From positions 128,001 through 192,000 of IMG/VR virus record IMGVR_UViG_3300011980_000002: a stretch of 64,000 nucleotides of DNA; one strand, 5' to 3'. The translations under genes were made by a program, and so were the position numbers. This stretch comes from a virus. Positions 14,080 through 64,000 of this stretch are shown here, piece by piece. The notes beneath the pieces were generated by a model. It was not told the DNA's origin, ran no database searches, and worked only from the letters and a program-made list of their open reading frames with translations. The stretch's first letter is position 1. Each line of letters opens with the position of its first letter.

Positions 14080-15522
14080 ATGAAAAGAATAATTTCAGTA
14101 TATCATACTCATATAGAAATTTATCCATATGAATTAGGAGACTTTAGACGAATAGAAACTTTCTATTCAGAATTTGATATAGTATTTCATAAGTATAATC
14201 CAATAGCTTATTACTATGAGGATAATACTCTATATTTACCAAGAGGTACAAGTTTAACTTATTTGCAAAAGAATTTACCTGAGTCTGAAATAGTAATTAA
14301 GAAAGATACAGATGACAAAGAGTATATTAAGATAAATCCGTTAATTGGATATAAATCAGATATACAAAAAGAAGCAGTAGAATTTCTATCATCCGAGGGT
14401 AGATTTACTAAAGGATTATCATATTCTCAATTTGCATTAAACTTGGATACTGGTGATGGTAAAACTATTGCAATGATATTAGCAATAGCTCAAAGATATA
14501 AAACAAGAGCTATGATAATAATGAACCAATCGGATTTAAAGAAACAGTGGAAACGAGAATTTATTAAAGCTACGGATATAGATGAGAATAGGATATTAGA
14601 TATATCAGGTTCTGATACTATAGTTAAATTAATGGATAGTAATGAAATAGATTATGATATCTTTTTAATCAATCATCAGACTTTATCATCATTTGGTAAA
14701 AGATATGGTTGGAAAGAGTTATCCAATTTCTTTAAAAAGATTAAAATTGGAGTTAAAGTATACGATGAAGCTCATAAGTTCTTTACTAATATATCAATGA
14801 TAGATTTCTTTACTAACACAGAAAAGACTTTTTACTTAACTGCTACATTTAAGCGTAGTGGAGCAAGAGAGTCTACGATGTTTAAGAAAGCATTTAGTAA
14901 TTGCTATAGGTTTGGTGAAGAGACTCTTAATTATGAGAGTAAAAGAAAACATACAGACTATTTCTATATTCAGTTTAATAGTAATTGCCCAGTATTAACA
15001 CAATCAAGATTATATGGAAGATTTTCTGTGTCCCCATTCAATTATATTAAGTATCAATTATTTTGGGATGAAAGAAAAACCTTTTATAATGTCTTAAAGA
15101 AAGTAATTAAGCTAATAGAGAATTTAGAGGGTAAGATATTAATAATATCTCCTACGATAGAATCTACTGAAGTAATTGGTAAATTTATATCTGATAATTT
15201 TGATAAGAGAGTAGTAATTATGAATTCTAAAATTAATGAAGAAGTCGATTTTAGTAATTATGATGTAATAAGTGCTACGATGAAATTATTAGGTACTGCT
15301 ATAGATATAAAAGGATTAAGAGTATTAATTAATACCGAACCATTTAAATCTGAAGTTAACTTAAGACAATTAAAAGGTAGATTGAGGGAATATAATAGTA
15401 CTGATATGACATACATGTTTGATTTAGTAGATGTTTCTATAAGAGATGTATCTAGTATGGGACAAAGTAGACTTAATAATATGAAGAAATATGCTAATGA
15501 AATTAAGATAATTAATGTATAA
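14080..15522 (+). CDS. superfamily 2 DEAD/DEAH-box helicase
   Basis: Motif I LDTGDGKTIAM, motif II VYDEAHKF (DEAH), motif III YLTATFKR, motif VI QLKGRLRE. Confidence 0.8.
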   Translation: MKRIISVYHTHIEIYPYELGDFRRIETFYSEFDIVFHKYNPIAYYYEDNTLYLPRGTSLTYLQKNLPESEIVIKKDTDDKEYIKINPLIGYKSDIQKEAVEFLSSEGRFTKGLSYSQFALNLDTGDGKTIAMILAIAQRYKTRAMIIMNQSDLKKQWKREFIKATDIDENRILDISGSDTIVKLMDSNEIDYDIFLINHQTLSSFGKRYGWKELSNFFKKIKIGVKVYDEAHKFFTNISMIDFFTNTEKTFYLTATFKRSGARESTMFKKAFSNCYRFGEETLNYESKRKHTDYFYIQFNSNCPVLTQSRLYGRFSVSPFNYIKYQLFWDERKTFYNVLKKVIKLIENLEGKILIISPTIESTEVIGKFISDNFDKRVVIMNSKINEEVDFSNYDVISATMKLLGTAIDIKGLRVLINTEPFKSEVNLRQLKGRLREYNSTDMTYMFDLVDVSIRDVSSMGQSRLNNMKKYANEIKIINV

Positions 15523-15574
15523 CAAAATTATAAGCAATTAAAAAAATATTAAGATATATAGGAGATTACAGATA

Positions 15575-20895: not shown

Positions 20896-20965
20896 TTAAA
20901 AAACCTTGTAAAAACATTGAAGTAAACTAAATAAAATTAAATAAGAAAGGTGGTATATTGTAATT

Positions 20966-40515: not shown

Positions 40516-40548
40516 AAATCTTAATTAATTTTAGGATTTATTTTTTTT
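40516..40548. terminator. weak AT-rich bidirectional stem-loop between convergent genes
   Basis: AAATAAATC ... GATTTATTT stem followed by T8. Confidence 0.4.
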
Positions 40549-43351: not shown

Positions 43352-43409
43352 TTAATTTAGCCTGATTACTCCTTTCTAATTTTCTATTAAAAATCTATCT
43401 AAAGGTTAA

Positions 43410-43451
43410 GTCAATGTTTTTAGCCCTAAAAACCCTATGAAAAACATTGAC
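43410..43451. promoter_or_regulatory. 12-bp perfect inverted repeat carrying back-to-back TTGAC boxes in a divergent intergenic region
   Basis: GTCAATGTTTTT-N18-AAAAACATTGAC. The minus strand reads TTGACT-N17-TTTAAT ahead of the beta-prime gene. The plus strand reads TTGACC-N17-AAAAAT ahead of 43497. Confidence 0.4.
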
Positions 43452-43496
43452 CTAAATTAAAACTAAGATAAAAATATTATACAGAAAGGATTTATT

Positions 43497-46681: not shown

Positions 46682-46819
46682 CAGTTTTGTTTATGTCCTT
46701 TCCATTTATATTTTTTCTAATATATGAGATTTATATATTTGTGTTCTGATATAACTAATAGTAATTAATTGATATTAGCACAAAATAATAAAATCTATAT
46801 ATAGAAAGGAACTAAGATA

Positions 46820-47162: not shown

Positions 47163-48383
47163 ATGAGTACATTAGTCGCAAAGACTGGATTATTTACAAT
47201 TAGAGCTAATTTTACTAATAACTTAGTAAAGATATTGGAATATGCTTCAAGGACTTGTTATAATTCTTATGATAAGATAGATATTGATACTTGGAAAACT
47301 CATATTACATCAAGAATTAAAAGTAAGCATGAGTCTGTTATTGAGCATGGTAGATTTGCTGTTATAATAGATTATTCTGTGTTTGATATATTTCATTTCG
47401 ATGTAGAAGATGTCTATAAAGAAGTTGAAGTTATCAATAGGATAATGGCTGAAAGCAATTCTTTAATAAGATATGCTAAAGAAGATTATTACTTAATTAA
47501 ATATCCTAAAGTACCTATAATATCTTTATCGGGTAATATGAAAATGTGGAGAGATTTAATTAAGTTTATATTTACTAATAAATCAGAATATCTATCCAGT
47601 ACAATGAGATTTATCATAAAGATATTTGCTATATATGATAAAAAGTATAGTGATGTATTTGGATTAGATATACCTGAATTAATTAAATATAAACCAGTAT
47701 CTCTTGAAGGTAATTTATTTAATATCCCTAATGATAATATTATAGAAAATATTACTACAAGAGATAGATTAAATGATATAGAGAAGGATAAATTACCTAA
47801 GATATATGACAATAATGGAATTACTTCAAGACTAATTAATTTAGACCATTTTGGTAGAGGATTGTTAATAGAACCAGATATTCCATCACATATATTAGAG
47901 TATTTAAGAGACCATGTGTTAGATATAAACTCTGTAACTTATGTAATAGACTTACCAAGAGCTATATCATTACAAGAAGCAAGACATAGAATAAATTCTA
48001 TATCTCAAAGGTCTCAAAGATATGTTAATGAGTCAATAGAAGATTCTACATATTATATACCAGATTATATAGATAAGGATAAGAAGTATAAATTGGACAA
48101 TGGTATAGAAATATCGTATGATGAATATTTTAAATTATCTTTATCTTTATATAATGAATTAATTAAAGATAAAATAAAGAAAGAAGATAGTAGGTTTGTA
48201 TTACCTAGTGGAATGAATACTACTATGATAATAACTAAACCACTACATACATTACCTCATTATTTCTTTGAAAGATGTGCTAAAGGAGCACAGAAAGAGA
48301 TAAGAGAACCTGCTATAGCATTAAGAGATTTATTAAATACATCATATAACTATGTAACTGGTGAAGATAATAAATTATTTTAA
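47163..48383 (+). CDS. thyX: flavin-dependent thymidylate synthase ThyX (unusually long, 406 aa)
   Basis: HESVIEHG (HxSxxEH), the ThyX signature RHRINSISQRSQRY (RHRxxSxxxxSxRY) and C-terminal AQKEIREPA. Confidence 0.85.
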   Translation: MSTLVAKTGLFTIRANFTNNLVKILEYASRTCYNSYDKIDIDTWKTHITSRIKSKHESVIEHGRFAVIIDYSVFDIFHFDVEDVYKEVEVINRIMAESNSLIRYAKEDYYLIKYPKVPIISLSGNMKMWRDLIKFIFTNKSEYLSSTMRFIIKIFAIYDKKYSDVFGLDIPELIKYKPVSLEGNLFNIPNDNIIENITTRDRLNDIEKDKLPKIYDNNGITSRLINLDHFGRGLLIEPDIPSHILEYLRDHVLDINSVTYVIDLPRAISLQEARHRINSISQRSQRYVNESIEDSTYYIPDYIDKDKKYKLDNGIEISYDEYFKLSLSLYNELIKDKIKKEDSRFVLPSGMNTTMIITKPLHTLPHYFFERCAKGAQKEIREPAIALRDLLNTSYNYVTGEDNKLF

Positions 48384-50112: not shown

Positions 50113-52173
50113 ATGGAACCTATCATAAAGCATATTTCCACAGAAGAAGAAATGAAGAAGCATATAAAACCATTATATGTAATTCATGATTATATGGATA
50201 ATGATGAATCATACATAGATTTTCAAGAGTCTATGTATGATTTGATTAAAGGATGTTTCGAATATCATAAACTGAGGACTTATCCGATTAATTTTAAATT
50301 CTATGAAAGTGATACAAAAGTTCATACATTAGAACTTAGATTTTTCGTAGTAAATTTATTTTATTGGTATCCTCTTATTAATTTAAACAAGTTTAAAGAT
50401 GTTATAGATGAGAGTTTTATCATTACTAAATCTACCGATGTAATTCATATTAATAAGTGGATTGATAATTTAATGATAACCTTATCTGATTATCATGTTA
50501 AACCTGTTGTAATAAACAGATACATTTCTACAGCCTTATATAATATAAGAAGAGTCAATGCAGACTTTTCTGAAATTATGGGACTAAACTTTGATTTAGT
50601 AACTATATTTGAAATGTATTGTAATAATAAGACGATACATGATTTGATGGAACTAAATATAGATGAGGAAATGCAACCTAATGAAATAGAGGAAATCTTA
50701 TTAGACGCAGAAGAGAAATTAATTAATGAATTAATGTCTATTAAGAATAATCCTATCGGGACAATATTAAGAAGTGGAACTGGTATTAAACATAAGCAAG
50801 CTGTAGAGTTCTTTATATCTAAAGGACTAATGCCTACAATAGATGGAACTACTATACCATTACCAATAAAGAATTCTACTTTAATTGGTGGTATTAGTAA
50901 AGCTTCTGATTTATATATAGATGGTACAGGTTCACGAAAGTCATTAATAATGTCTCATACGGTAATGGGTAATGCCGGTCATTTTGGTAAGATGTTAGCC
51001 GAATTAGCCAGAACTTTATCATTATCTAAAAGAGTTGCAGATTGTGGTACTAAGCATAGAGTTAAATACTTTGTAGAAAGTAAGAAATTCTTAAAGAAAT
51101 TAGATAATAGATATTTCTCATTAACTAAGAACGGGGAATTGGAATTACTTAAGGCTAATAAGATGGAATATCTTATTAATAAAGAAATTTATGTAAGATC
51201 CCCAGCTACTTGTTGTTTAGAGAATGAAGTATGTCCAAGATGTATGGGCAAAATAGCTACATTTAATTTCGATATTGCGGCAGGATTTTGTGCTTTCTTA
51301 ATTAAAGAAGTTACTAAAGTATTAGAGCAGAATATATTATCTACTAAGCATCTACTTACTACAACTTCAGAGAAGATTGAGTTTAATGAAACTTTCCATA
51401 AGTATTTCACATTATCATCTAATGAGGTTAATATTAATCTTAATGATAATGAAGAAATTGAATCTATTGAAGATTGGGTAATGATATTAAATAAAGATAC
51501 TATAGAGAAAGAAGATGATATGGATATGGAAGAAGGTCTTAATACATATATATCTGATGGTAAATTTACTGTTAAGAATATAAAGACTAATCAGACATTT
51601 GAAATATCAGAACTTGGAAAGAAGAATCTTTATTTATCAGATGAATTAATAGAATTATTTAAATCTAGTAGTACAATTAAATTCTCAGACTTGGATGAAA
51701 GTGCTCCACTATTTATTATTCAGATTTCTAATAATGAATTAACAAGACCATTGTATGAAATTATGGATATAATCAATACTAAGAAGAAAACTGACTTTGA
51801 AAGAACTATAGATAATATGGCACAAAGATTCGTTCAGTTATTAATAGAGTCTAAGATTGCTGCTCCTGCGGTATCTGCTGAAGTTATTATTAACAGATTA
51901 CTTAGACTTCCTGATGATATGTTTAATAGACCAGATTTCAATTCTGTCAAAATGCCAGATTATACTATTTCAACAAGTATGGCTTCTTTAGAGAGGAATA
52001 ACTCAGCTAGTGTTGGTTTAGCTTTTCAGTTCTTAAATAGGCAGTTAACTAACTTAGAGTCTTTCACTAAAAAGAGTTCACCATCATACCTCGACCCGTT
52101 ATTCAGAGAAGAGGTCTCAACTAAAAAGGTGAAGAAATTTATGAAATATATCAATAAAAAAGATAGGAAATAA
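50113..52173 (+). CDS. phage multisubunit RNAP beta-prime-like subunit, C-terminal polypeptide (regions E/F to H)
   Basis: RSGTGIKHKQAVEFFISKGLM (SGARGS..Q..QL.GMRGLM). DGTGSRKSLIMSHTVMGNAGHFGKMLAELA ([27 protein letters not shown]). CPRCMGKIA...STKHLLTT (C..CYG...TFH). Confidence 0.85.
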   Translation: MEPIIKHISTEEEMKKHIKPLYVIHDYMDNDESYIDFQESMYDLIKGCFEYHKLRTYPINFKFYESDTKVHTLELRFFVVNLFYWYPLINLNKFKDVIDESFIITKSTDVIHINKWIDNLMITLSDYHVKPVVINRYISTALYNIRRVNADFSEIMGLNFDLVTIFEMYCNNKTIHDLMELNIDEEMQPNEIEEILLDAEEKLINELMSIKNNPIGTILRSGTGIKHKQAVEFFISKGLMPTIDGTTIPLPIKNSTLIGGISKASDLYIDGTGSRKSLIMSHTVMGNAGHFGKMLAELARTLSLSKRVADCGTKHRVKYFVESKKFLKKLDNRYFSLTKNGELELLKANKMEYLINKEIYVRSPATCCLENEVCPRCMGKIATFNFDIAAGFCAFLIKEVTKVLEQNILSTKHLLTTTSEKIEFNETFHKYFTLSSNEVNINLNDNEEIESIEDWVMILNKDTIEKEDDMDMEEGLNTYISDGKFTVKNIKTNQTFEISELGKKNLYLSDELIELFKSSSTIKFSDLDESAPLFIIQISNNELTRPLYEIMDIINTKKKTDFERTIDNMAQRFVQLLIESKIAAPAVSAEVIINRLLRLPDDMFNRPDFNSVKMPDYTISTSMASLERNNSASVGLAFQFLNRQLTNLESFTKKSSPSYLDPLFREEVSTKKVKKFMKYINKKDRK

Positions 52174-52175
52174 CT

Positions 52176-52700
52176 ATGTTACTTAAAGCGTTATACTCGA
52201 ACGGACTAACACTATCTATTCAAAATAGTAATAAATTTGAATTAGATAGTACCATGTATTTATACATGAATACAATGAGAGATATAATATCTGATATTAG
52301 TATCAAAACCAATGGTTTAATATCATTGGTTAAATTTACAATAAGTGAGGAAATTGGTATTAGTATCAGATATTCTCCAACTAAAAGATTTACTATAGTA
52401 ATAGGAATAGATAATCTTAAAGAAATAAGTTCTATGGTTAAAATAGATATTGATTTAATCAATAAGTACTTTACCAATATAATAGATACTCTATTCTCTA
52501 TAGTATCTCAGAATAAATGTAACGATATTATACCAGATGATATGGAAGATGATGAATATACTCTTAAAATAGAAAATGCTATTAAAGAGATGGATAATAC
52601 CAGTTTCATTATGGCAATGACATTGTTTGGTATGATAGTTAATTTTAATAAAGCTATTATTAGTAGTAATGAATTATTAAATCAAAAACTTAAGAAATAA
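52176..52700 (+). CDS. hypothetical protein
   Basis: 174-codon ORF starting 3 nt after the upstream stop. Confidence 0.6.
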   Translation: MLLKALYSNGLTLSIQNSNKFELDSTMYLYMNTMRDIISDISIKTNGLISLVKFTISEEIGISIRYSPTKRFTIVIGIDNLKEISSMVKIDIDLINKYFTNIIDTLFSIVSQNKCNDIIPDDMEDDEYTLKIENAIKEMDNTSFIMAMTLFGMIVNFNKAIISSNELLNQKLKK

Positions 52701-52728: not shown

Positions 52729-53307
52729 ATGAAGAATATAATGACAATGCAGGAAGTACTAGAAGCAATAAGAGCTAAAGCTAAACCTAATAAGGATGGT
52801 AGCGAAGGATTTACTTATAATAGATTTAACAAGAAAAGCTTTGAGAATCTATTAAGGGCAATGCTTAATGATACAGATGTAAAGATAGGTACCATTAAGG
52901 TTAAGAATAATGAAGTATCATCTAAAGAAGATATTATGGTTACACAAGAATTTCGTAAGTTCTTACAAAAGATTCTTAGAACTGCCGGAATAGATGCTGA
53001 AGACAGTAAAGCTATATTATCTAAAGATTTTATAATAGATAATGTGGATGGATTATATGAATTCTTTACCACTGCTATGTATATATACATGGACAATGGT
53101 AATAAGTTTGATATGATACCAACTGAAAACTTCAAAGGAAGTCTGTACATAAATAATGTAGCAGAAACTAAGAAGACTCAGGATGCAAAAAATCCTAAGG
53201 ACGGAAGTTCATTGGGTACATTTGAAACAACTAAGAAGACTCATAAGAAGTTATGTGTTAAGAGTAGTTGTCCAAGTTACTTGGTGAATAGAAAGAAGAT
53301 AAAGTAG
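52729..53307 (+). CDS. hypothetical protein (G/C-ending codon class)
   Basis: 192-codon ORF with AGAAAGGAA RBS. Confidence 0.65.
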   Translation: MKNIMTMQEVLEAIRAKAKPNKDGSEGFTYNRFNKKSFENLLRAMLNDTDVKIGTIKVKNNEVSSKEDIMVTQEFRKFLQKILRTAGIDAEDSKAILSKDFIIDNVDGLYEFFTTAMYIYMDNGNKFDMIPTENFKGSLYINNVAETKKTQDAKNPKDGSSLGTFETTKKTHKKLCVKSSCPSYLVNRKKIK

Positions 53308-53446: not shown

Positions 53447-53635
53447 ATGTCAGATATAGTAACTGTTATGAGAAAAAGAGAATTAGCAAAGGCTAGTGAG
53501 ATTTTAAGAAGTTTGGATGAAAGAATTAGTAAGGACCTCGATGGTGGACATACACCTGAAAGGTATCATGAATGGCTCGATATTGTGGATTTGAAATATA
53601 TCATAGAGAGTTTAGTAAAACTCGAAGAGTCATAA
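53447..53635 (+). CDS. small hypothetical protein (62 aa)
   Basis: Leader AAAGGAGAAAAAGAAATATG. Single gene of a class A cassette. Confidence 0.65.
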   Translation: MSDIVTVMRKRELAKASEILRSLDERISKDLDGGHTPERYHEWLDIVDLKYIIESLVKLEES

Positions 53636-53684
53636 AAAATAAAACCCTTATAGATATAATTTCTATAAGGGTTTTATTTTTTTA
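53634..53684. terminator. bidirectional terminator shared with the convergent endolysin gene
   Basis: AAAACCCTTATAG ... CTATAAGGGTTTT stem flanked by A-run and T-run. Confidence 0.85.
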
Positions 53685-54548
53685 TTTAACTATAGAAAAT
53701 ATTGATAGGTCTGGGGTTTTTGTATTATATTCTTTTTTCCATTTACCATTACAATCTACAAAATAATATAAGTTATTATCTATTACAGACTGTATGTAAG
53801 CATTAGTAGCCATCTTTCCATCTTCTTTAAGATAATATGTACCACTTGATAATTCTAACCATTGGGAAGATAACATATGGCAATTCTTATTATCCATATA
53901 ATACCAATCATCACCACTCTTAAACCATCCGGTTATTGTGCATCCATCAGCATCAAATACATACCATAATCCATTTATTTTTTTCCAATTATCTTTAACG
54001 ATATTTCCATCTTCATCATAGTATATCCACTTATCACCAACTTTAGACCATTCTTGATTATGGTTTTCTATACTTGGTGGAGTTTGTAATATTTTATCAT
54101 ATTTTCTCAATTCATATTGGTTTATTATATCTAAATTCAGTTTAATATATTTACTATCTGTAGCATATCCAGCTTCTTTTAATATTTGTAAATATTCTTC
54201 TGGTGTAAATACATTTTTTAGTTTCCTATATCTTGGTAAGGATATAAAATCAAAATATCCTTTAATACCATCTTCTAAAGTTCTATAAACTCTAAAATTA
54301 TCTTTAATCGTAGTTTTAACTCCTGGTGTATACTCTTCTTTAGTCTTAAGATTAACAGAAGCTCCTGTCCATTTAGAACCAGTCTTCATACCGAAGTAAT
54401 TATGATAAGAAGCAGCTAATTTGGTATTACCCCACCCACTCTCTAATATAGCTTGAGAAATAATAACACTTGCTACTTTAATACCATATTTCGGAGCATA
54501 TATAATTACATATTTAGATATATTATCAATAAATTCTTGTTTCGTCAT
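53682..54548 (-). CDS. endolysin: N-terminal GH73 N-acetylglucosaminidase + C-terminal cell-wall-binding (CW_binding_1 / choline-binding-type) repeats
   Basis: SQAILESGWGNTKLAASYHNYFGMK (GH73 catalytic-Glu segment). C-terminal repeats of the G-W-x-K-x-x-G-x-W-Y-Y-F-D-x-D-G type (WKKINGLWYVFDADGCTITGWFKSGDDWYYMD, GTYYLKEDGKMATN). Confidence 0.85.
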   Translation of the reverse strand: MTKQEFIDNISKYVIIYAPKYGIKVASVIISQAILESGWGNTKLAASYHNYFGMKTGSKWTGASVNLKTKEEYTPGVKTTIKDNFRVYRTLEDGIKGYFDFISLPRYRKLKNVFTPEEYLQILKEAGYATDSKYIKLNLDIINQYELRKYDKILQTPPSIENHNQEWSKVGDKWIYYDEDGNIVKDNWKKINGLWYVFDADGCTITGWFKSGDDWYYMDNKNCHMLSSQWLELSSGTYYLKEDGKMATNAYIQSVIDNNLYYFVDCNGKWKKEYNTKTPDLSIFSIVK

Positions 54549-54694
54549 TACAATATAAATTTCCTTTCATTTTGTTTGATAATTTTTCTATTACTTATGT
54601 AAGTGTGATGAATCCCTTAAGAAAATTGACCCAAAAAACATATACCTAAGCTTATGCTATATAAAATAAAGAAAGGGGGATATAAGAATATTTT

Positions 54695-57600
54695 ATGGCG
54701 AGAAATCGAAATGGATCTATATTAAAATCTTTTTCAAATAATATTCGTAGTAAGTCTAAACAGATATCTACACCATGGTTAAAAAATGCCATGAAAGGTA
54801 TCGGAGCTGCTGCGAAGGATACGCTAAAAGATATTGCTCCTGTTTTATATGATGCATCTACTACTGCTGGTAAAGCTAGTAAAGATGCAATTACTTTATT
54901 GCGTGGTAATACAAATGCTACTGCAATGAATAAGTTAATATCTAAAAATATATATGTAAGAACTGCCAGAGACATGATCAAATGGACAATGGAAGATTTA
55001 CGTTCAGGTAAATTATTTAATGAAGATCGTGTTACCGACATATTAATGGGTGGTGATGGAAGTGGTTCTGCAATGAGTGACCCAGACTCAATGTTTTCAG
55101 ACTGGGACATGGACGATGATGGAAGTTCCGGTAATGTCATTATTAATAATAATTCTGATAGTAGTAATGCCGGATTTGCATTAGCAGTTAATGAAGGATT
55201 AAGAGAATCTACAATGGCACAACTCAAAGGTCAACAAGCAATGGTTGATACTATGGTTGCTATTAGTGGAAGTCAAATTCTTCAAAATCAAGAGATAGGT
55301 AATCAGATTATTACCCAATTAACTAATGTAAATAATAATCTTATTGCTATAAATGAATTTAACAAAACTACTATGACAAGTTTTGTTACAACTGTTACCG
55401 CTTATATGGAAAAAATGGGTAAGAAAGCAGATGAATATGATTCATCTGAAGAGAAATTTGACCCAGCATCTATATTTAGTGGTGGATTTAATTTAGGTAA
55501 CTATGGTAAGCATATTAAAAAGAATGTAAAAACAGCATTTGAGAATTCTGATATTGGATTTGTTCATAGTTTAGTTAGTGACCCAGAGACGCTTAAACTA
55601 ATTACAGCTAATCCATTAGGTGCATTAACAACTTTAACAATGAAAGCAATGACTCCTAAGTTAATGAAAAAGACTATGAGTCAGATAGATGAAGCTGTTG
55701 CGGGATTTATGCCATCGTTATTAATGAGAATAGGTGAGTTATCTGAATCCAGAGAACTTGGATGGAAAGGTAAACTTAAACGATGGATAGGTGATGTATT
55801 TGGATTACAAAATGTATCTAATACTGATAGAAATAAATTAAATCCTACTAAAAATATCACTAAAGATGCAGCAGTATTTGATGGTATTACAAGACATACT
55901 ATTGTAGAAATAATTCCTAAATACTTAAGTGAATCTGTATCATATCTTAAAGAATTGGTTCATGTTAATGGTGGTAATGTTGGTAGGGCTATGGGAAGTC
56001 GAGAAATCTTCGACTTTAATAAAGGTAGATTTAGTACCGTAGCTAAATCAAGAAGAGACTTATATGAACAGATAAGAAGTTCAGGTACTGATGTAATTGC
56101 TAGTGGTAAATTAGGTAGACATATCGAATCTAACAGTGGTGCTGCTTATACTGACAAAGATGGTAAATACGATAATAAAGCATTAGAGCAATGGAATGAT
56201 ATGGTAACCAAATTCTACGATCAATTAGAGCGTATGAATAAAATGATAGACATGACTAATTTCTCCGAAGATGGAGATATTATGAAAGCTATCAAGGGAA
56301 CCGGATATGGTGGTAAGATGGCTGAGTTCTTAAAACAACTCATGATAGAAGCATCTAAAGATACATCTATTACAACTACCGCTAACTCAGATTTCCAAAG
56401 AGCAAGATACTCAAGAAAAGCTACCATTAAAGATATGAATGAAAATCCGGATTATTATAATCTTAGTGCTGTAGCAAATCTTAGTGAAGATATTGATCAA
56501 ACAATGGACAGAGTATTTGGTGGTGTATTTGGTAATCCAAATGAAATCAAACAATCCGGTTCAATGGTTAAAACTTTATCTGATATAAGATATATTCTTA
56601 ATAGAGGAATTAATGTAAGAATTACTGGGCATGGACCATATCAAACATTTACCGGTCAAGAAACTAATATTTCTAGTATCACTAGAGAAAACGCTCCTCA
56701 AAGAAATACATCTCCACAATCATCTCAAAATGATGAAGACAAAGCTGGTCCAACTAAATTGGAAGAAATGTCTACTGAAGAGATGATAAATCATGTTGCT
56801 GAAAATGGTACTTTGTATAACGATGATACTAAGACTACTAAGAAAGTTAAAGATATAATGCACGCATTACTATTTGGAAATGCTTCAATGGCATTTAGTG
56901 GTGTTGCAGATATATTTATTAGTAAGATTAATGGTGTTATCGATGTAATAGATAAAGACTTTTTCCAACCAATGAAAGCAAGTTTATTCGGTACTAAAGA
57001 TGAACAAGGTTATTCTCGTAATGGTGTATTCTCTGGAATGCAGCAACAGTTTACAGATTACTATAGAAGTATTGTAAGACAGTTTAATGGTAAAGGATAT
57101 ACTGACTCTAAAGGTCAAAAACATGAGGATATTACTGACCCAAGTAAATCTGTTGTAGGACAAATTAAAGCTACAGTATCGGATATAAAAGAAACTGTAG
57201 TAGATTATGTTTTAGGTCCTAAAGATAGCGAGACTGGTAAAAGAGAAAAAGGTATGGGTCTTGTTAATATCTTTAGAGATGGAATTGAAGGATGGGGAAA
57301 AGCTATCTTTGGAGAAACTGAAGATGGTAAACCTAAATTCGATGCAGAGAAATTTAAAAAAGAAGTAAGTGAAAGAATGCCTAGTGCTGTTACTGGAGCT
57401 TTAGGTGGTGCTGTTCTTGGTAGTATGACAAGTGGAAGTTTACTTGGTTGGTTAGTTGGTGGTCCTGTTACTGGTTCTATATTAGGATTAGCTACTGGAT
57501 TTGCTTCTAAGAGTAAAAAGTTCCAACAATTCCTATTTGGTGAAAAAGACGAAGAAGGTAATATTGTCAGAGACAGTGGTATCATCAATAAGAAAATGCA

Positions 57601-60600
57601 AGACTGGTTCAAGAAGAATAAAGTTCCAATCATAGGTGGAGCAGCAGTTGGAGCTGCGAAATCTGTATTACTTGGTAATGGATTTTTAACAGGAATGGTT
57701 GGAAACATCATAGGCGGACCATTAGCTGGAGCATTACTTGGTTCTATTGGTGGAATAGCTTTAAGATCTGAAGCTTTTAAAACTTTCTTATTTGGTGATA
57801 TGGATAAAGTGGATGCACACGGAAATCGTGGATGGCATAAGGGAATAATCCCAATGTTTAAAGGTATCTTTAAGAAAAATGATGGTACGACAGATGAAGG
57901 TAAATCAATGCTTGGAATGGCTGGTATTGGTGCTGGAGTTGGTTATTTATCTGCGGCTGTTATTGGTAAGATGGGATTTTTAGGTGCCATGGCAACCCCA
58001 TTTGGTCCGATTGGTGGTGCTATTGCAGGTTTAGCATTATCTATTAAAGCATCTCAAGGTGGATTTAGAGAATGGTTATTTGGTAAGGAAAATGAAGATG
58101 GAACAAAATCTGCTGGTATATTAGGAAGATTTGCTAATATGTTAAATGCAGAATTACTTACACCATTTAAACAAGGTGCAATGGAATTTGCATTAGATAC
58201 TAGAGACTTCTTAATAGATAAGATTATGGCTCCTATTGAATTTGCTATAGAACCATTTGCAAATGCAATGAAAGACTTAGGTGATAAAATTAAGAAAACC
58301 TTTGAGAAAGTTGGTAATTTTATCGTTGATTCTATAAAAGAACACATGATAAAACCTATAACTGAAACTATTGGTAAGTACATATTATCACCTATAAGAA
58401 AAACATTCGGTATATTATTTAAATTAACTACAGGAATAATTAAATCTATCGTAGCTGCTCCATTTTCTGCTATAGGAATGATGGCTAATTACGGTGAATA
58501 TAAAGAGCGTAAGCGTAGTAGAAGAATGGCTATTGATGATGTCTATGAAGAACAAGGTTTACTTGGTGGATTAATTCATCAAGGTAAGGTTATGCTTAAC
58601 TATGGTGGAGCTAGAGAAGCTGCTAACTATAAACATCATAGATATTCTGACTGGGGTGAGCGTAAGAAACGTTATGAAGCTGATAGATTAAGAAGAGCTG
58701 AAGAAAGAAAAACCCAAAAAGAAGAGGGTAGAAGAAATGTCCGTAATAGGATATTAATGGCTCGTTATTCTGGTGGAGAATTATTAGAAGATAGTGAAGA
58801 AAATCGTGCTAGATTAGAGGAGATGCTAAAAAATAGTCCTCGTAAGCGTAAACTATTTGGATTATTAGCTGATAAACCTAATTTCAAAGGTGCTGCTACT
58901 GAAGAAAATAGATCTACCAAATTAGATAATAGCAATATTATCAAAAATGCAGATAGTCCAGGTTCTCCAGTAGATGAAAGACAGTTGGGTACTCAGTTAA
59001 GTATCTTAGATTTACTTAGAAAGATATTTGGTCTAAATAAGGATAATAAGAAACTTAAAGGGTCAAGAAAATTTACTGGTGGAAGAAGAACTACAACAGA
59101 AGATGGTGAAAATCCAGAGTCTCAAACAGACGAAGAGGTTATTAACGATGAAGATGAAAATAGACCAGCTCATAAATCTTTATTCCAAAGATTAAGAGAA
59201 TATAATTATGGTAATTTAAATCCATTCAAGAGATTCTTCGGAGATAAAGCAGATAAAGGTGACAGACCTCGTATAAGATATTATGCCGAAGGTGGAGACC
59301 ATAAAGAAGATGGAATGGCTGTAGTAGGAGAAGAAGGACCGGAGTTAGTAAGATTAGCTAGAGGTTCTAGGATATTTGGTGGTAGAAAACCATTGCCTGT
59401 TACAGTTGTTGATATGAATAGTAAAGCTGTTAGTAAGTTTAAAGTAGCCACTGCTCCTAAAATATCTGAAGAAGCTGGAGTTACAGTAACCAGAAGAAGT
59501 CTCATTGATAAACAGAGAGAAGAGGATAAATCAGATTACCAGAAACAAAAAGATGCTGGTAAACTTGAGAATATTGAGAAGAGAAAACTCGAAGAAGAAA
59601 AGCTTAATATGGAACGAGAAAATCATGACAATATTAAAGCTACAAGAGAAACTCAAGAGAAATTCTCATTAGGATGGGGTAAGATATTCTCTAAAAAAGG
59701 AATAATTACTGCTGGATTTATGATACTATTACCACTATTAATCAAATGGTTAATGGGAAAAGGTGGTGATGGTGGTGGAATCAGTGGTCCAGATATCGGT
59801 AAACAAGTTTTAAACGATTTATCATTCGGACAAGACCATTTACAAGATGGAAAAAGTACTCCTGAAATGATAAAAGAAACCATGGATGATACTAAGCATC
59901 TTTTTAAAGGTGATATATGGAAATGGGTAACATCTGATGGTGGATGGGATCATGAAAGCGGTGCTAAACTAAATGCATTAGGGCATATTCCAGTTGCTCT
60001 TGGTGGATTATTAAGACCTTTCCTAAAAACTGGTACTAAACAAAATAAAGCTGTGATGAATTTCATCAATGGTTTTAAGAATAGTAAATTCTTAGGATTT
60101 GGTAAAAGACAACTTGGAAGAGCTGGTAGTGCTATAGGTTCAGGTGCAGGTCGTTTTGGTACAAGAGCATTAGAATACATGGATGAAGCTGGAGCTGGTA
60201 TTAATCTTGCAGTTAATATGAGAGCTGCTAATCCAGGTTCAAGAATGAAAGATGTACTTAAAGATATGAAACTCATTAAACAAGGTGAGGGTTCATATAG
60301 AGAAGCATTAGAAACCATGAAAACATTCCAGAATTCAGGATACGGAAGTATGGATGAAGCTCTTGGAATGATGGGATATGGTGGAGAAGGATATAAAGTA
60401 CTTGGAAAAGGTAGTGGTGTCGGAGATGACATAGTTAGAAATACAAGAAGAGTAATAGGTCCAAATGCTGCTAAAACCGGTGGTCTCCGTGAAACAATGA
60501 TGCGTCAGAAAGAAATGGCTAGATTAGCTAAAAACGAAACTAGTGTTGGTAATAAATACTTGGCTAGTTTAGCTGATGATGGCGATGAACTTGCTAAATT

Positions 60601-63600
60601 ATTAGGTGATACATCTGGAGCAACTAACTCTGAAATACTTAGAACCTTTAAGGGTGATAAAAACTTTGCAAGAACTATTGGACAAAAACAGTTAGCAAAT
60701 GCTGGAGAAGAAACCGCAAATTCTTTCTGGAGAAAGAGCGTAGGTTTAGGAGACGATTTAGGTGAAGCTGGTGCTAAACTTGGACAAACATTCGGAGATG
60801 ATGGTTTAGAGCTAGCCGCTAAAGCTGGTTCATTCTCAGATGATGCTGCAAGAGCTGCCGGAAAAGCTGGTAAAGGATTTACTGATGATGCTTTAAGAGT
60901 TGCATCTAAATCTATAGGAAGTTTGATGGATGAATTCTGGAAAGTTGCAGCTAAAGTTGGTGGAAAGATTGGTAGTAAAATGCCATCTTTTGTAGATGAC
61001 ATACTTAGAGCAATTGGAAAGAAATTCGCATACTTTACAGCTAAACTTGCTGCAATTATGGGTAAGACTGCTGCATTAGCAGCTACAGTTGTAGGTTATT
61101 TAGCAGACCAAACATTATGGATTACTGTTGGTGCAGTCGATGGTTTAACAGGTGCTGCTAGACTATTCCAGATAGATAGACCTGACTGGATAATGGTTGC
61201 ATTATCTGGTGCTATAGGTGCATTTAAAGGAAGTACAGTTGGTTCTATACTTGACTTAATAAATGAAATAGTTCATAGTGTATTAGGGCTAGATATGTTC
61301 CATGAACTTGCTTCTTGGGTTTATGGATTTTTAGCAGGTAATGAGAAATACCAGAATTTACTAAGACAAAAAGAAGAGTTTAAAAATCAATTCTTAGAGG
61401 ATGATGAGGCTTCTTTAAGAAAGCAATATGAAGCATATCTTGGAATTACTGGTACTAATGAAAATCAAGTATCATTTGAGAAATTCATGGAGCATGTTAA
61501 TAAAGGTGATATCAAAGTTAAGACTGAATCTTTTGCAGATTACAATGAAAGAAAACATGCTTCAGTTTTAGGTCATTTAGGAAGAGGTACTGTTAATGCA
61601 ATCAATGCTACGGGAAACTTCTTAGTAGGAACAGATAGCCAATCATGGAGAGACCAAATGGGTAATACATGGGTGGTTAAAGATGATCGAAAAGGAATAG
61701 CTCAAGTTTACAGTAAAGATGGACAGATGCTCGGTGAGATGAGTGCTGAGAATATTGATAAAGAAAACTGGAAGTATAACGGTAAACAAGAAGGTAGAGG
61801 TGCTGTCGATGTTATTGGAGATGGTATTACTACTGCTACGAACGCTATAGGAGATGCGTACAACACTGTAAGAGCTAATCCATTTGGACGAGCTTCTGTT
61901 GCTGCACTAACTATGGGCACAAGTGAACTCTGGGATTTTGCAAGTAACCCTGCTCAATATATGTCAGGTATGGGAAAAACCATGGGACAAGGAGCTGGTG
62001 CATTATGGGGCGGTATGAAAGCTGCTGGTAAAGGTATTTCTGATTTTGCAGGAGCGGCATGGAATGGTATAGGTGCCGCTGGTGATAAATTAGGTGAATT
62101 CTTTGCTCCTATAGGAAAGGGATTTAATAATGTACTTAAAAACTTATTCGCACCATTGATTGGAGAAGTAAAGCTATTTAGTAGTGATTTCTTAATGAGA
62201 AATGCTAAAGTTCCTGAAGCATATGCTAAAGCTGGTGACATTAGTGGTTTATGGTCAAGCTTAGATGCAGGTATGGAAGGTGGCTACAATCAAGATAGTG
62301 ATGATGCATCTCTAATAAGAGGTGTTGGTGGAGCTGTTAGTAGAATTGCAGGATTTTTCTCAAGAATATATTACACATTTCCAGCAGCGTTTAGTGCTCT
62401 AGGAAATTGGTGGGATGATACTGTAACTAAACCATTTAGAGAATTTTCAAGTAACGCTCAACCTAGAATAGATAGTATAAAAAGTCAGATAGACGCTGCT
62501 GCTGCTGCCGGTGATATTGCTAGTATAGCTAGTGGCGTTGGTGTTGGTCGTGGACCAACATTAGGTGGTTCAGGTATGCTTGAAGATTTGTATGTGAATG
62601 TTATGACATTTTTACCATATATTGGCGGTACATTTAAAGCAGGATTTAATGCTGTTGGAAAATGGTGGAACGATAATGTTGCACAACCATTTATAAATTT
62701 TGGATTAGAATTACAACCACATTATGTTTCTATCGCTGAGAAAATAACTGAAGCAGCTTCTAATGGTGATATAGGTGCAGTTTGGAGTGCTGAAGATACA
62801 GCCGAAGGTGAACTTAGTTCATTTCAATCAACTGTACTCGGTGCAATGTCTATTGGACCAAAAATTGGTGGTACATTTGTAGCAGGATTTAATGCTGTTG
62901 GAAAATGGTGGAATAACGCTATAGTTAAACCATTCAAAGAATTTGCTGATAATGCTCAACCTACTATAGATGAAGTTAATGATAAAATGTGGGCTGCCGC
63001 TGCTGCCGGTGATACAGAGGCTGTTGGCGAAGCTCAAAGAATTAATACTGGTAGCCCTTTAATGAATTTGTATGTCAGTGCAATGACAATGTTTCCATGG
63101 ATGGGTGCAAGTATGAAAGCCGGAGTTGTTAAGATTGGTAATATATTCTCAGAGTTCTTTAACAATGAAGGTGAGTCTATTAAGAATATGGGTAACAGTA
63201 TGGCTTCATACTGGAAGACCTTGAATGGGAAATTTGACGGGGAAGGATATCAGAAAATATCTGTCGGTGAGTTATTTACATTTGGAAAGAATTCATCTAT
63301 TTCAAATACTATAGTAGGAGCCTTAACCGGTATATTTGGAACTGTTTGGTATGTTATTAGAGCTGCTGTTGAAGAAGTTGGTGGTTTTTTCAAAAATGCT
63401 TGGGATGTGATAACTGCACCATTTAAATGGATTGGTGATAAAGTAAAAGAACTATCAAAAGATACAGAGACTACTAAGCAATCATGGAATGATATAGTTA
63501 ATAACCAAAATGTATCATCATCAACTACAACATCCAATTATAGTAAGCGTGAATCAGCATATCTTAATAGTAATATGTGGGCTAATATGACAGATGAACA

Positions 63601-64000
63601 AATACGAGCAAAGGTTAAAGAACTAAATAAGACTATAGGATATGATTCATATAACGCAGATGAAATAATTGCTAGCCGAAATAAAAAGAAAGAGAATAAC
63701 TACTCATCTTATAGTAATACAACTATCGGTGTAGATTCTAGTGGAAATATTACTACTAAACAATCTAACGGTGGTAAAGGTGGTGGAAAGGGTGGTAAAG
63801 ATATTAGTTTACCATACTTCTCACAAAAAGACCCAAGATGGGGTAATAAGAAATACGGTAATGAAAAAATGTCAGACGCTGGTTGTGGACCTAATGTTAT
63901 GGCTTCTGTAGCATCTGGTTTAGGTGGTGCAAGAGGTGGTTCAGTATCACCGATGGAAATGGCAGATTACGCTAAGGAAAAAGGATATAGAGATAGTACT
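54695..64000 (+). CDS. giant tape-measure-like virion protein with C-terminal cysteine-peptidase-like domain (3' end beyond window)
   Basis: The frame is opened by TAA at 54683 and the first ATG is at 54695, after GAAAGGGGGA. I checked the frame at about 54.7, 58.5-59.8, 62.3-63.2 and 63.8 kb; it is always the same (position mod 3 = 2) and I saw no stops. The gene contains Gly-zipper hydrophobic segments, the TMP hallmark VVGEEGPELVRLARGS (59321-59350) and internal repeats. It was omitted from the ORF track, presumably because no stop lies in the window. Confidence 0.85.
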   Translation, partial: MARNRNGSILKSFSNNIRSKSKQISTPWLKNAMKGIGAAAKDTLKDIAPVLYDASTTAGKASKDAITLLRGNTNATAMNKLISKNIYVRTARDMIKWTMEDLRSGKLFNEDRVTDILMGGDGSGSAMSDPDSMFSDWDMDDDGSSGNVIINNNSDSSNAGFALAVNEGLRESTMAQLKGQQAMVDTMVAISGSQILQNQEIGNQIITQLTNVNNNLIAINEFNKTTMTSFVTTVTAYMEKMGKKADEYDSSEEKFDPASIFSGGFNLGNYGKHIKKNVKTAFENSDIGFVHSLVSDPETLKLITANPLGALTTLTMKAMTPKLMKKTMSQIDEAVAGFMPSLLMRIGELSESRELGWKGKLKRWIGDVFGLQNVSNTDRNKLNPTKNITKDAAVFDGITRHTIVEIIPKYLSESVSYLKELVHVNGGNVGRAMGSREIFDFNKGRFSTVAKSRRDLYEQIRSSGTDVIASGKLGRHIESNSGAAYTDKDGKYDNKALEQWNDMVTKFYDQLERMNKMIDMTNFSEDGDIMKAIKGTGYGGKMAEFLKQLMIEASKDTSITTTANSDFQRARYSRKATIKDMNENPDYYNLSAVANLSEDIDQTMDRVFGGVFGNPNEIKQSGSMVKTLSDIRYILNRGINVRITGHGPYQTFTGQETNISSITRENAPQRNTSPQSSQNDEDKAGPTKLEEMSTEEMINHVAENGTLYNDDTKTTKKVKDIMHALLFGNASMAFSGVADIFISKINGVIDVIDKDFFQPMKASLFGTKDEQGYSRNGVFSGMQQQFTDYYRSIVRQFNGKGYTDSKGQKHEDITDPSKSVVGQIKATVSDIKETVVDYVLGPKDSETGKREKGMGLVNIFRDGIEGWGKAIFGETEDGKPKFDAEKFKKEVSERMPSAVTGALGGAVLGSMTSGSLLGWLVGGPVTGSILGLATGFASKSKKFQQFLFGEKDEEGNIVRDSGIINKKMQDWFKKNKVPIIGGAAVGAAKSVLLGNGFLTGMVGNIIGGPLAGALLGSIGGIALRSEAFKTFLFGDMDKVDAHGNRGWHKGIIPMFKGIFKKNDGTTDEGKSMLGMAGIGAGVGYLSAAVIGKMGFLGAMATPFGPIGGAIAGLALSIKASQGGFREWLFGKENEDGTKSAGILGRFANMLNAELLTPFKQGAMEFALDTRDFLIDKIMAPIEFAIEPFANAMKDLGDKIKKTFEKVGNFIVDSIKEHMIKPITETIGKYILSPIRKTFGILFKLTTGIIKSIVAAPFSAIGMMANYGEYKERKRSRRMAIDDVYEEQGLLGGLIHQGKVMLNYGGAREAANYKHHRYSDWGERKKRYEADRLRRAEERKTQKEEGRRNVRNRILMARYSGGELLEDSEENRARLEEMLKNSPRKRKLFGLLADKPNFKGAATEENRSTKLDNSNIIKNADSPGSPVDERQLGTQLSILDLLRKIFGLNKDNKKLKGSRKFTGGRRTTTEDGENPESQTDEEVINDEDENRPAHKSLFQRLREYNYGNLNPFKRFFGDKADKGDRPRIRYYAEGGDHKEDGMAVVGEEGPELVRLARGSRIFGGRKPLPVTVVDMNSKAVSKFKVATAPKISEEAGVTVTRRSLIDKQREEDKSDYQKQKDAGKLENIEKRKLEEEKLNMERENHDNIKATRETQEKFSLGWGKIFSKKGIITAGFMILLPLLIKWLMGKGGDGGGISGPDIGKQVLNDLSFGQDHLQDGKSTPEMIKETMDDTKHLFKGDIWKWVTSDGGWDHESGAKLNALGHIPVALGGLLRPFLKTGTKQNKAVMNFINGFKNSKFLGFGKRQLGRAGSAIGSGAGRFGTRALEYMDEAGAGINLAVNMRAANPGSRMKDVLKDMKLIKQGEGSYREALETMKTFQNSGYGSMDEALGMMGYGGEGYKVLGKGSGVGDDIVRNTRRVIGPNAAKTGGLRETMMRQKEMARLAKNETSVGNKYLASLADDGDELAKLLGDTSGATNSEILRTFKGDKNFARTIGQKQLANAGEETANSFWRKSVGLGDDLGEAGAKLGQTFGDDGLELAAKAGSFSDDAARAAGKAGKGFTDDALRVASKSIGSLMDEFWKVAAKVGGKIGSKMPSFVDDILRAIGKKFAYFTAKLAAIMGKTAALAATVVGYLADQTLWITVGAVDGLTGAARLFQIDRPDWIMVALSGAIGAFKGSTVGSILDLINEIVHSVLGLDMFHELASWVYGFLAGNEKYQNLLRQKEEFKNQFLEDDEASLRKQYEAYLGITGTNENQVSFEKFMEHVNKGDIKVKTESFADYNERKHASVLGHLGRGTVNAINATGNFLVGTDSQSWRDQMGNTWVVKDDRKGIAQVYSKDGQMLGEMSAENIDKENWKYNGKQEGRGAVDVIGDGITTATNAIGDAYNTVRANPFGRASVAALTMGTSELWDFASNPAQYMSGMGKTMGQGAGALWGGMKAAGKGISDFAGAAWNGIGAAGDKLGEFFAPIGKGFNNVLKNLFAPLIGEVKLFSSDFLMRNAKVPEAYAKAGDISGLWSSLDAGMEGGYNQDSDDASLIRGVGGAVSRIAGFFSRIYYTFPAAFSALGNWWDDTVTKPFREFSSNAQPRIDSIKSQIDAAAAAGDIASIASGVGVGRGPTLGGSGMLEDLYVNVMTFLPYIGGTFKAGFNAVGKWWNDNVAQPFINFGLELQPHYVSIAEKITEAASNGDIGAVWSAEDTAEGELSSFQSTVLGAMSIGPKIGGTFVAGFNAVGKWWNNAIVKPFKEFADNAQPTIDEVNDKMWAAAAAGDTEAVGEAQRINTGSPLMNLYVSAMTMFPWMGASMKAGVVKIGNIFSEFFNNEGESIKNMGNSMASYWKTLNGKFDGEGYQKISVGELFTFGKNSSISNTIVGALTGIFGTVWYVIRAAVEEVGGFFKNAWDVITAPFKWIGDKVKELSKDTETTKQSWNDIVNNQNVSSSTTTSNYSKRESAYLNSNMWANMTDEQIRAKVKELNKTIGYDSYNADEIIASRNKKKENNYSSYSNTTIGVDSSGNITTKQSNGGKGGGKGGKDISLPYFSQKDPRWGNKKYGNEKMSDAGCGPNVMASVASGLGGARGGSVSPMEMADYAKEKGYRDST
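57380..58100 (+). repeat. three protein-level modules: glycine-zipper hydrophobic segment followed by F-x-x-(F/W)-LFG-x-x-D-x-x-G
   Basis: ...GALGGAVLGSMTSGSLLGWLVGGPVTGSILGLATGFASKSKKFQQFLFGEKDEEG; ...IIGGAAVGAAKSVLLGNGFLTGMVGNIIGGPLAGALLGSIGGIALRSEAFKTFLFGDMDKVDAHG; ...GMAGIGAGVGYLSAAVIGKMGFLGAMATPFGPIGGAIAGLALSIKASQGGFREWLFGKENEDG. Confidence 0.75.
62330..63170 (+). repeat. 3-4 tandem in-frame repeats of about 81-85 codons inside the giant ORF
   Basis: The anchor TGGTGG (WW) occurs at 62408, 62663 and 62906. Unit: F-x-A-G-F-N-A-V-G-K-W-W-N-x-x-V-x-x-P-F-x-x-F-...-Q-P-...-A-A-A-x-G-D. The 62641-62668 and 62884-62911 segments are identical at nt level (AGGATTTAATGCTGTTGGAAAATGGTGG). Confidence 0.85.

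Follow-up and report, generated by a model that had tools for sequence, protein, structure and literature searches.

A giant gene for a probable tail protein of an uncultured jumbo phage, with an internal tape-measure terminus motif followed by a long, probably lytic, extension

Giant tape-measure proteins (TMPs) and tail lysins are already known from jumbo phages, as are TMPs that carry lytic or other cargo (T5 pb2, TM4, P23-45 gp96), and here we describe a gene related to them in a 64,000-nucleotide stretch of virus DNA (positions 128,001 to 192,000 of IMG/VR record IMGVR_UViG_3300011980_000002; hereafter the window), where an open reading frame (ORF) beginning at position 54695 on the + strand runs 3,102 codons to the window edge. 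The closest described systems are g204 of Bacillus phage AR9, PBS1 gp95 and gp263 of vB_BpuM-BpSp (hereafter BpSp), all Takahashivirus proteins, annotated as "tail tape measure protein" or "lysis domain protein". Further away stands gp181 of Pseudomonas phage phiKZ (2,237 amino acids, aa), a giant protein of the tail whose C-terminal domain is muralytic, reported as a virion-associated "tail-associated endolysin" of demonstrated muralytic activity (Briers 2008, as cited in PMC5380687). Staphylococcus jumbo phages DC4 and MarsHill encode an adjacent "TMP" (1,990 aa, M23) and "tail lysozyme" (1,962 aa) with lytic domains and transmembrane (TM) segments, the DC4 TMP having been called by prediction only, according to the available part of its description. 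Functionally, two unrelated phages offer models: T5 pb2 is a tape measure that is also fusogenic and muralytic (Boulanger et al. 2008, as cited in PMC5380687 and PMC4870245), and gp96 of Thermus phage P23-45 is a 5,002-aa TMP fused to a virion RNA polymerase (RNAP) in a phage with an extremely long tail (PMC10770324), a precedent for a multi-thousand-residue TMP with enzymatic cargo delivered into or onto the host. Jumbo-phage TMPs are nonetheless poorly defined, metagenomic studies sometimes report that none was found (PMC12619734), and the annotations of the cultured homologues are inconsistent ("tail fiber", "lysis domain protein", "TMP", "hypothetical"). We consider it probable that the gene described here encodes a ~4,000-aa virion tail protein of a jumbo myophage, made up of a tape measure of ~1,550-1,600 aa and a cargo of ~2,400 aa.

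The giant ORF is a real gene. A preliminary description of this DNA had claimed a frame open from ATG 54695 to the window edge over 3102 codons, and had named an in-frame stop as the thing to look for; machine translation of 54695-64000 (+) finds none in its 3,102 codons, and that ATG is the first start codon after an in-frame TAA at 54683. The window has a G+C content of 27.9%, stops make up 9.1% of codons over its + frames, and at that + frame stop frequency the chance of an open run of 3,102 codons is ~1e-129. Its absence from the ORF track, also pointed out in the preliminary description, has a simple cause, since the ORF list used leaves out ORFs that run past the sequence end; lists that drop edge-truncated ORFs can thus conceal the largest gene of a window. 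The closest relative (P0001; 3,957 aa) is 85% identical over the aligned part, and because the window edge corresponds to its residue 3,033, we estimate that ~920 codons lie beyond the window and that the full protein has ~4,000 aa and ~430 kDa. The ORFs listed on the opposite strand had been dismissed earlier as antisense artefacts, and rightly: seven antisense ORFs reach 80 aa or more, the longest inside the gene being 177 aa, and this matches the chance output of synonymous-codon shuffles that preserve the protein (6.1 ± 1.6 such ORFs, longest 176 ± 50 aa), and only 2/7 keep their position in L002, the locus of the 85%-identical relative, which served for comparison of the promoter, the Shine-Dalgarno sequence and the antisense ORFs. 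The features of the gene are listed below, where AF2 is AlphaFold2, pLDDT the predicted local distance difference test score and pTM the predicted template modelling score.

54637..54648, +: AR9-type late-promoter-like sequence AACA-TATACC-T-A, predicted +1 at 54648, 47 nt before the ATG (AR9 consensus; kept in L002)
54672..54680, +: Shine-Dalgarno-like AAAGGGGGA, ~15 nt before ATG 54695 (read from the sequence; kept in L002)
54695..64000, +: partial coding sequence of the putative giant tail protein, 3,102 codons (no stops; 85% identical to P0001)
54695..56764, +: N-terminal signature domain, aa 1-690, mostly helical (profile, hhalign, AF2, BFVD)
57377..58045, +: three glycine-zipper hydrophobic segments, aa 895-938, 977-1023 and 1071-1117, within the most conserved block, aa 850-1250 (hydropathy, charge-free stretches)
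59240..59419, +: canonical tape-measure terminus motif, internal, aa 1516-1575, core YYAEGG-x10-VVGEEGPELVRLARGSRIF (regular expression, profile, tblastn)
59687..59755, +: strongly hydrophobic TM-like helix, aa 1665-1687 (GIITAGFMILLPLLIKWLM), first element after the motif (Kyte-Doolittle 19-mer mean 1.97, the highest of the protein)
60782..61744, +: conserved block D, aa 2030-2350, predicted hydrophobic helical bundle plus small beta sheet (42 relatives; AF2 pLDDT 67.6, pTM 0.55)
61832..63724, +: hypervariable lineage-specific cassette, aa 2380-3010 (identity drop against P0001; repeats)
63800..64000, +: first part of a cysteine peptidase domain resembling Peptidase_C39_2, aa 3036-3102, truncated at the window edge, LPYFSQKDPRW...DAGC3064GPN (PF13529 in P0001 and P0002)

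The protein has a terminus motif that its cultured homologues lack. The preliminary description had noticed a VGE-x-GPE-L sequence at 59312-59370, a placement with the correct start and an end 7 nt short, as GMAVVGEEGPELVRLARGSRIF spans aa 1540-1561 and nt 59312-59377; the whole motif covers aa 1528-1561, and its VGEEGPEL belongs to the element [FY]A.G[GT]-x10-VGE.GPE-[LV]. A tblastn search with aa 1501-1600 matched 102 phage records, and the annotated ones among those shown are mostly TMPs of unrelated siphophages and myophages. The likeness to phiCDHM11 gp13, the canonical TMP of a C. difficile myophage, amounts to 52% identity over 31 aa, and the family motif profile matches that protein at E = 2e-14. 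In phiCDHM11 gp13 (584 aa), Geobacillus GBSV1 gp29 (955 aa) and MD8 gp16 (827 aa) 30-70 aa separate the end of the matched stretch from the C-terminus (the motif of phiCDHM11 gp13 lying 56 aa from the end), whereas in the window protein it is internal, at about residue 1,550 of ~4,000. We surveyed 186 relatives of at least 2,500 aa, of which 85 have a clear copy, and there the first copy ends at a median residue of 1,603 (interquartile range 1,569-1,707; 83/85 between ~1,425 and 1,950); the 54 sequences outside the set from which the profile was built give a median of 1,610. The relatives differ, by comparison, in total length (2,585-5,477 aa) and in the size of the part behind the motif (1,039-3,752 aa), and this fixed N-terminal module with a variable C-terminal part gives the family the look of a ruler plus cargo. 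The motif is doubled or tripled in P0024, P0019, P0106 and P0122, with weaker second copies in P0021, P0022, P0025, P0027, P0030 and P0037, the repeated copies being either ~45 aa or more than 1,000 aa apart (residues 1,568 and 2,819 in P0024).

Canonical TMPs are helical and have glycine-rich hydrophobic segments. The glycine-zipper, membrane-like segments that had been announced for this protein are indeed there, at aa 895-938, 977-1023 and 1071-1117, together with the TM-like helix at aa 1665-1687. Scans of the whole protein against Pfam and PHROGs gave no match, and scans of 450-aa pieces gave weak matches to eight TMP PHROGs (28, 58, 1068, 1272, 991, 19914, 8892 and 3336), those to PHROGs 28, 58, 1068 and 1272 falling over aa 1060-1420. 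With the motif matches to annotated TMPs and an AR9 orthologue that is itself annotated as a TMP, these results agree with the earlier characterization of the product as tape-measure-like. Compared with phiCDHM11 gp13 and GBSV1 gp29, which have the [FY]A.G[GT]-x10-VGE.GPE-[LV] element in common with it, the window protein differs in the distance of the motif from the C-terminus, and its gene differs in setting, that of phiCDHM11 coming after sheath, tube and chaperone genes and that of the window standing divergent from an endolysin gene. From a scaling perspective, a ruler module of 1,552-1,603 aa at 0.15-0.156 nm per residue would predict a tail of about 233-250 nm, the upper scaling value being that of phage G, with a 450 nm tail for a 2,893-aa TMP (PMC8570332), and the full ~4,000 aa would correspond to ~600 nm. 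The tail of MarsHill, an AR9-like Staphylococcus jumbo phage, measures 233 ± 4 nm.

Evolutionarily, the N-terminal domain places the protein in a superfamily with AR9 g204 and phiKZ gp181. In an AF2 model of low confidence (pLDDT 51) helices predominate in the domain, one of them 80 residues long (aa 168-247), and aa 410-600 form a compact domain; the conserved core is FDGITRHTIVEIIPKYL at aa 395-411 (FDGITRHxIVEIIPxYL core). Megablast of the giant gene against 50,697 phage records gave no match, and tblastn of aa 1-3000 against the same records found the AR9/PBS1/BpSp group only, over aa 303-671. The AR9 match falls in g204 (1,925 aa, annotated "tail tape measure protein"), with which aa 28-671 are collinear in pairwise BLASTP (g204 aa 9-613, E = 5e-15). 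A profile of aa 1-690 matches AR9 g204 (3e-60) and BpSp gp263 (3e-57) and, at the same N-terminal position, both Staphylococcus phage proteins, DC4_259 ("tail lysozyme", 4e-13) and DC4_260 ("TMP", 1e-12). The link to phiKZ is an hhalign match of the window core (FDGITRHTIVEIIPKYL...FD..G.F, aa 392-461) to gp181 aa 465-528 (probability 91%, E = 1e-6). Structurally, a search of BFVD with the N-domain returned 12 matches (E = 4e-9 to 4e-4), all of them first segments of long phage proteins; the models of the N-domain and of block D found no match in the PDB below E = 0.5 (the search program being named, as Foldseek, for block D).

A word-indexed protein search found 68 homologues of 2,585-5,310 aa, and an exhaustive profile search at least 2,202 clusters (50% identity), of which 1,290 matched at E <= 1e-30; the N-domain starts within the first ~35 residues in 150/150 of the best matches listed, most of which are 2,900-5,477 aa long. 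Judged from these searches, the window protein is of ordinary size for its family, with the cultured examples as the short ones, and is a typical member of a very large family and not an oddity. The size of the family and the homology to AR9 g204 and phiKZ gp181 lower the rarity of the giant gene, not its reality. Four relatives, P0079 (5,477 aa), P0028 (5,310 aa), P0021 (5,244 aa) and P0022 (5,071 aa), all exceed P23-45 gp96 (5,002 aa) and would rank among the largest phage proteins recorded.

Gene order supports the relationship to the Takahashivirus proteins. In the relative, the gene 3' of the giant gene is homologous to BpSp gp264 (E = 4e-29), and RusA comes next in all three lineages; because the order giant gene, gp264-like gene, RusA is common to all, the window gene is the positional orthologue of g204 and gp263. 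The likeness extends to the collinear N-terminal ~600-690 aa, to a lysozyme-like domain near the C-terminus (that of P0001 matches AR9 g204 aa 1446-1666), and to the phages themselves, jumbo phages whose multisubunit RNA polymerases are split and whose hosts are Gram-positive. Unlike the window protein, however, the AR9 and BpSp proteins have only 1,800-1,925 aa, lack the GE.GPE motif and have no detectable block D, and AR9 g204 shows only the lysozyme-like match where P0001 has three hydrolase domains. In phiKZ gp181 the N-domain core sits at the same relative position, and the gene lies beside virion RNAP beta-subunit genes and is followed by a ~660-aa gene; the alignment, though, covers only ~64 columns, and the protein is half the size, lacks GE.GPE, has a single annotated lytic function and belongs to a phage of a Gram-negative host. 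The two DC4 genes (L003, 9375-15263 and 15287-21259) both encode the family N-domain at aa ~360-675, so that the "tail lysozyme" and the "TMP" are paralogues and not unrelated proteins, two genes without GE.GPE as against a single ~4,000-aa gene. An origin of the giant gene by fusion of the adjacent Staphylococcus TMP (1,990 aa) and tail lysozyme (1,962 aa) genes was considered and rejected, because each paralogue has an N-domain of its own and AR9 g204 alone has both N-domain and lysozyme.

The region after the motif is occupied by elements that point to functions other than that of a ruler. Behind the TM-like helix comes a Gly/Ala-rich stretch that leads to block D, which has no known fold and for which P0002 shows a weak match to the type III secretion system translocon protein SctB2 (E = 0.008). 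The cassette that follows is only 39-47% identical to P0001, against 91-98% for aa 1-2200, and contains three repeats of ~50 aa each, spaced ~85-95 aa (aa 2570-2614, 2655-2708 and 2736-2787), rich in conserved Trp and Phe (GKWW.D..V.PF) and limited, in the metagenomic family set searched, to the window protein, P0001 (3 copies) and P0002 (4 copies). Such a cassette may serve in host specificity or wall binding, or may have arisen by cassette exchange. After a GGKGGGKGGK linker begins the C39_2-like domain, recognized as PF13529 at the aligned position of P0001 (aa 2970-3108, E = 3e-14) and also in P0002, and in P0001 it is followed by NlpC/P60 and then by a VgrG3-like lysozyme that matches structures 4NOO and 4NSO. 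Hydrolase domains occur in most relatives, with CHAP, M23, glucosaminidase, SLT or amidase domains in their place in other members; in the phage records, the part of P0001 behind the motif found matches only via its catalytic domains. The proposal that much of the protein is probably not ruler thus gains from the position of the end motif, at ~1,550 of ~4,000, and from the C39-like, NlpC/P60 and VgrG3-like lysozyme domains that the relatives carry behind it. The 3,102 residues contain one cysteine, C3064 (codon 63884-63886), at the predicted C39 peptidase active site, and the six cysteines of P0001 all lie within lytic domains; this near-lack of cysteine agrees with a chain that passes along a tube and does its work extracellularly.

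Two precedents differ from this arrangement. T5 pb2 embodies the same functional model, in which a single protein sets the tail length, acts on the membrane, digests the wall and is ejected during infection, but it shows no detected sequence similarity, has ~124 kDa and one metallopeptidase, and belongs to a siphophage of a Gram-negative host. P23-45 gp96, unlike the window protein, carries its cargo, an RNAP, at the N-terminus, and the two are not homologous. A search of the window protein for a hidden enzyme of the kind found in P23-45 gave no DxDGD (D.D[GA]D), no HExxH, no convincing Walker A and no family match, and D.D[GA]D and RNAP family matches were likewise absent from both the window protein and P0001.

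The sequence ahead of the gene suggests when it may be expressed. The late consensus of the AR9 non-virion RNAP is 5'-A(-11)ACA-N6-U-A/G(+1) (PMC5449584), and its DNA form, AACA-N6-T-A/G, stands before 6/56 window genes, in every case 53-67 nt before the start codon, with ~2.3 expected within 15-120 nt. The sites, as computed from gene starts and distances, are the following.

15521-15532: late-promoter-like motif
20913-20924: late-promoter-like motif
43407-43418, -: late-promoter-like motif
43443-43454: late-promoter-like motif
46734-46745, -: late-promoter-like motif
54637-54648, +: late-promoter-like motif of the giant gene

The genes so marked include an RNAP beta'-like gene and the giant gene. 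This distribution suggests a promoter code in this phage like that of the AR9 non-virion RNAP, and the giant gene is probably expressed late, as expected of a virion protein, the timing being read from the promoter motif. A sigma-70 promoter scan of the divergent intergenic region showed no enrichment over shuffles.

Taken together, we posit a protein in which a ruler module (signature N-domain, long helices, glycine-zipper segments, a highly charged helical stretch and the terminus motif) would be followed by cargo in the order TM-like helix, hydrophobic helical domain, repeat cassette and three peptidoglycan hydrolases (C39-like, NlpC/P60 and VgrG3-like lysozyme). The C-terminus of a TMP sits in the baseplate hub (PMC11972413). 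In the mechanism that we propose, the N-terminal module would template tube polymerization while the motif docks in the hub; sheath contraction would then drive the whole chain out through the tube before the DNA. Its hydrolases would breach the thick wall of the Gram-positive host, and its hydrophobic domains would enter the membrane to form or line a DNA conduit, as for T5 pb2. It is possible, if rather doubtful, that the clade goes further and stores a pre-loaded ejectosome of up to ~400 kDa per chain (membrane-inserting domains, host-specific cassette and wall hydrolases), kept either distal to where the protein docks in the hub or doubled back inside the lumen, and freed by proteolysis near the motif, in which case the motif would be the first direct sequence bridge that makes the gp181/g204 superfamily true tape measures.

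Several observations weigh against the tape measure with cargo. The motif is recognizable in only 85/186 full-length relatives, although several of the members without it have a degenerate A.GGD...LVGD at the same place; GE.GPE is absent from the cultured homologues AR9 g204, BpSp gp263, DC4_259, DC4_260 and phiKZ gp181; and the PHROG TMP matches are individually weak (E = 1e-4 to 1e-2). No tail chaperone genes precede the giant gene, the upstream neighbour of which is the opposite-strand endolysin, and the 64 kb analysed are part of a genome of ~216 kb (the contig size of a relative), so that a second TMP candidate could lie elsewhere. A gel-band proteome did not show BpSp gp263, phiKZ gp181 is assigned to a cell-puncturing device and is not shown as a ruler (PMC5380687), and a place of the window protein in the virion is argued from its homologues only. 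The hardest point to explain is where the cargo is kept: three complete copies would take up ~53% of a lumen of 4 x 233 nm and six do not fit, and one would have to assume a trimer, cleavage or a store in the baseplate.

If the protein were a central-spike or cell-puncturing tail lysin at the baseplate, on the model of phiKZ gp181, another gene would be the ruler; the homology to gp181, which is placed in a needle-like cell-puncturing device (PMC5380687), speaks for this, as do the two N-domain giants of Staphylococcus jumbo phages, one called TMP and the other tail lysin, the position of the giant gene outside a canonical sheath-tube-chaperone-TMP module, and the coverage of only 64 kb of the genome by the window. 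We nevertheless regard it as unlikely, given that a canonical TMP terminus motif is present and its spacing from the N-terminus conserved, that the relative has a single giant gene at the locus, and that the helical content and hydrophobic glycine-rich architecture are typical of TMPs. The two roles are also compatible, since the hub, in which a TMP has its C-terminal end, is next to the spike (PMC11972413).

Much less probable is that all of the ~4,000 residues form an extended ruler in a tail of ~600 nm. Giant TMPs with very long tails do exist (phage G, 450 nm and 2,893 aa; P23-45, 5,002 aa), and both regions modelled by AF2 are mostly helical, but the TMP end motif stands at about residue 1,550 and not at the C-terminus, globular hydrolase domains and linkers take up at least 900 residues at the C-terminal end, totals range from 2,585 to 5,477 aa while the distance from N-terminus to motif stays at ~1,600, a 600-aa cassette is hypervariable between near-identical phages, and the tail of a cultured AR9-like relative measures ~233 nm. 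A head-internal ejection protein of the T7 gp16 or N4 virion RNAP type, packaged in the capsid and injected, would likewise be giant, nearly free of cysteine and equipped with lytic and hydrophobic domains, and phages of the phiKZ type package many such proteins (according to the available part of PMC7411985); that the window protein is one of them is scarcely credible, as it has a TMP-specific motif, is homologous to the tail-associated gp181 and AR9 g204, and shows no similarity to inner-body or ejection families in Pfam or PHROGs.

A tape measure with cargo would have consequences beyond this locus. The giant gene and its more than 2,000 relatives tie the TMP terminus motif to the gp181/g204 superfamily, which supports a uniform annotation, and they yield a testable rule, namely that tail length follows the distance from N-terminus to motif and not total length. 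They also raise the question of how chains of 300-600 kDa with up to three wall hydrolases are housed in, and delivered through, a tail. In the literature searched we found no description of an internal TMP terminus motif at a conserved N-terminal distance, of a variable cargo of 1,000-3,750 aa, or of the size and spread of the family. From an applied perspective, the lytic domains and the hypervariable cassette are candidate enzybiotic modules against Gram-positive bacteria.

The surrounding genes help to identify the source. RNAP beta/beta' PHROGs 2986, 2962 and 3015 match 40547-43351 (-) and 50113-52173 (+), the window also encodes an NAD-dependent ligase, a DNA polymerase, a helicase, a primase and a GroEL-like chaperonin, and many contigs of the relatives are 200-273 kb long. 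By its split multisubunit RNA polymerase genes, the source is an uncultured jumbo phage of the AR9/phiKZ type. The giant gene had been described as divergent from the endolysin, and the coordinates agree: the endolysin, a glucosaminidase with choline-binding repeats that suggests a Gram-positive host, occupies 53682-54548 (-) and the giant gene starts at 54695 (+). The contig of P0001 has the same order as the window (ThyX, a 686-aa RNAP subunit, the endolysin on the - strand and the giant gene), followed by a 620-aa protein and RusA. Two + strand genes before the endolysin (52176-52700 and 52729-53307) have no PHROG or Pfam match, and the structural genes of jumbo phages are known to be scattered.

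A perfect 20-bp hairpin (AAAAATAAAACCCTTATAGA...) at 53635-53681, with T runs on either side, lies just 3' of the endolysin stop and resembles a bidirectional intrinsic terminator that separates the endolysin from the + gene with its end at 53307. The ThyX (Thy1) domain makes up only aa 243-391 of the 406-aa ORF at 47163-48383 (+), the N-terminal ~240 aa having no assignment, and a thymidylate synthase gene is worth noting beside late-promoter motifs of the AR9 type, which depends on deoxyuridine-containing DNA. The gene for the GroEL-like chaperonin lies at 30451-32529 (+) and matches phrog_5725 (E = 1e-61), and a GroEL-like chaperonin has also been reported for AR9-like Staphylococcus jumbo phages.

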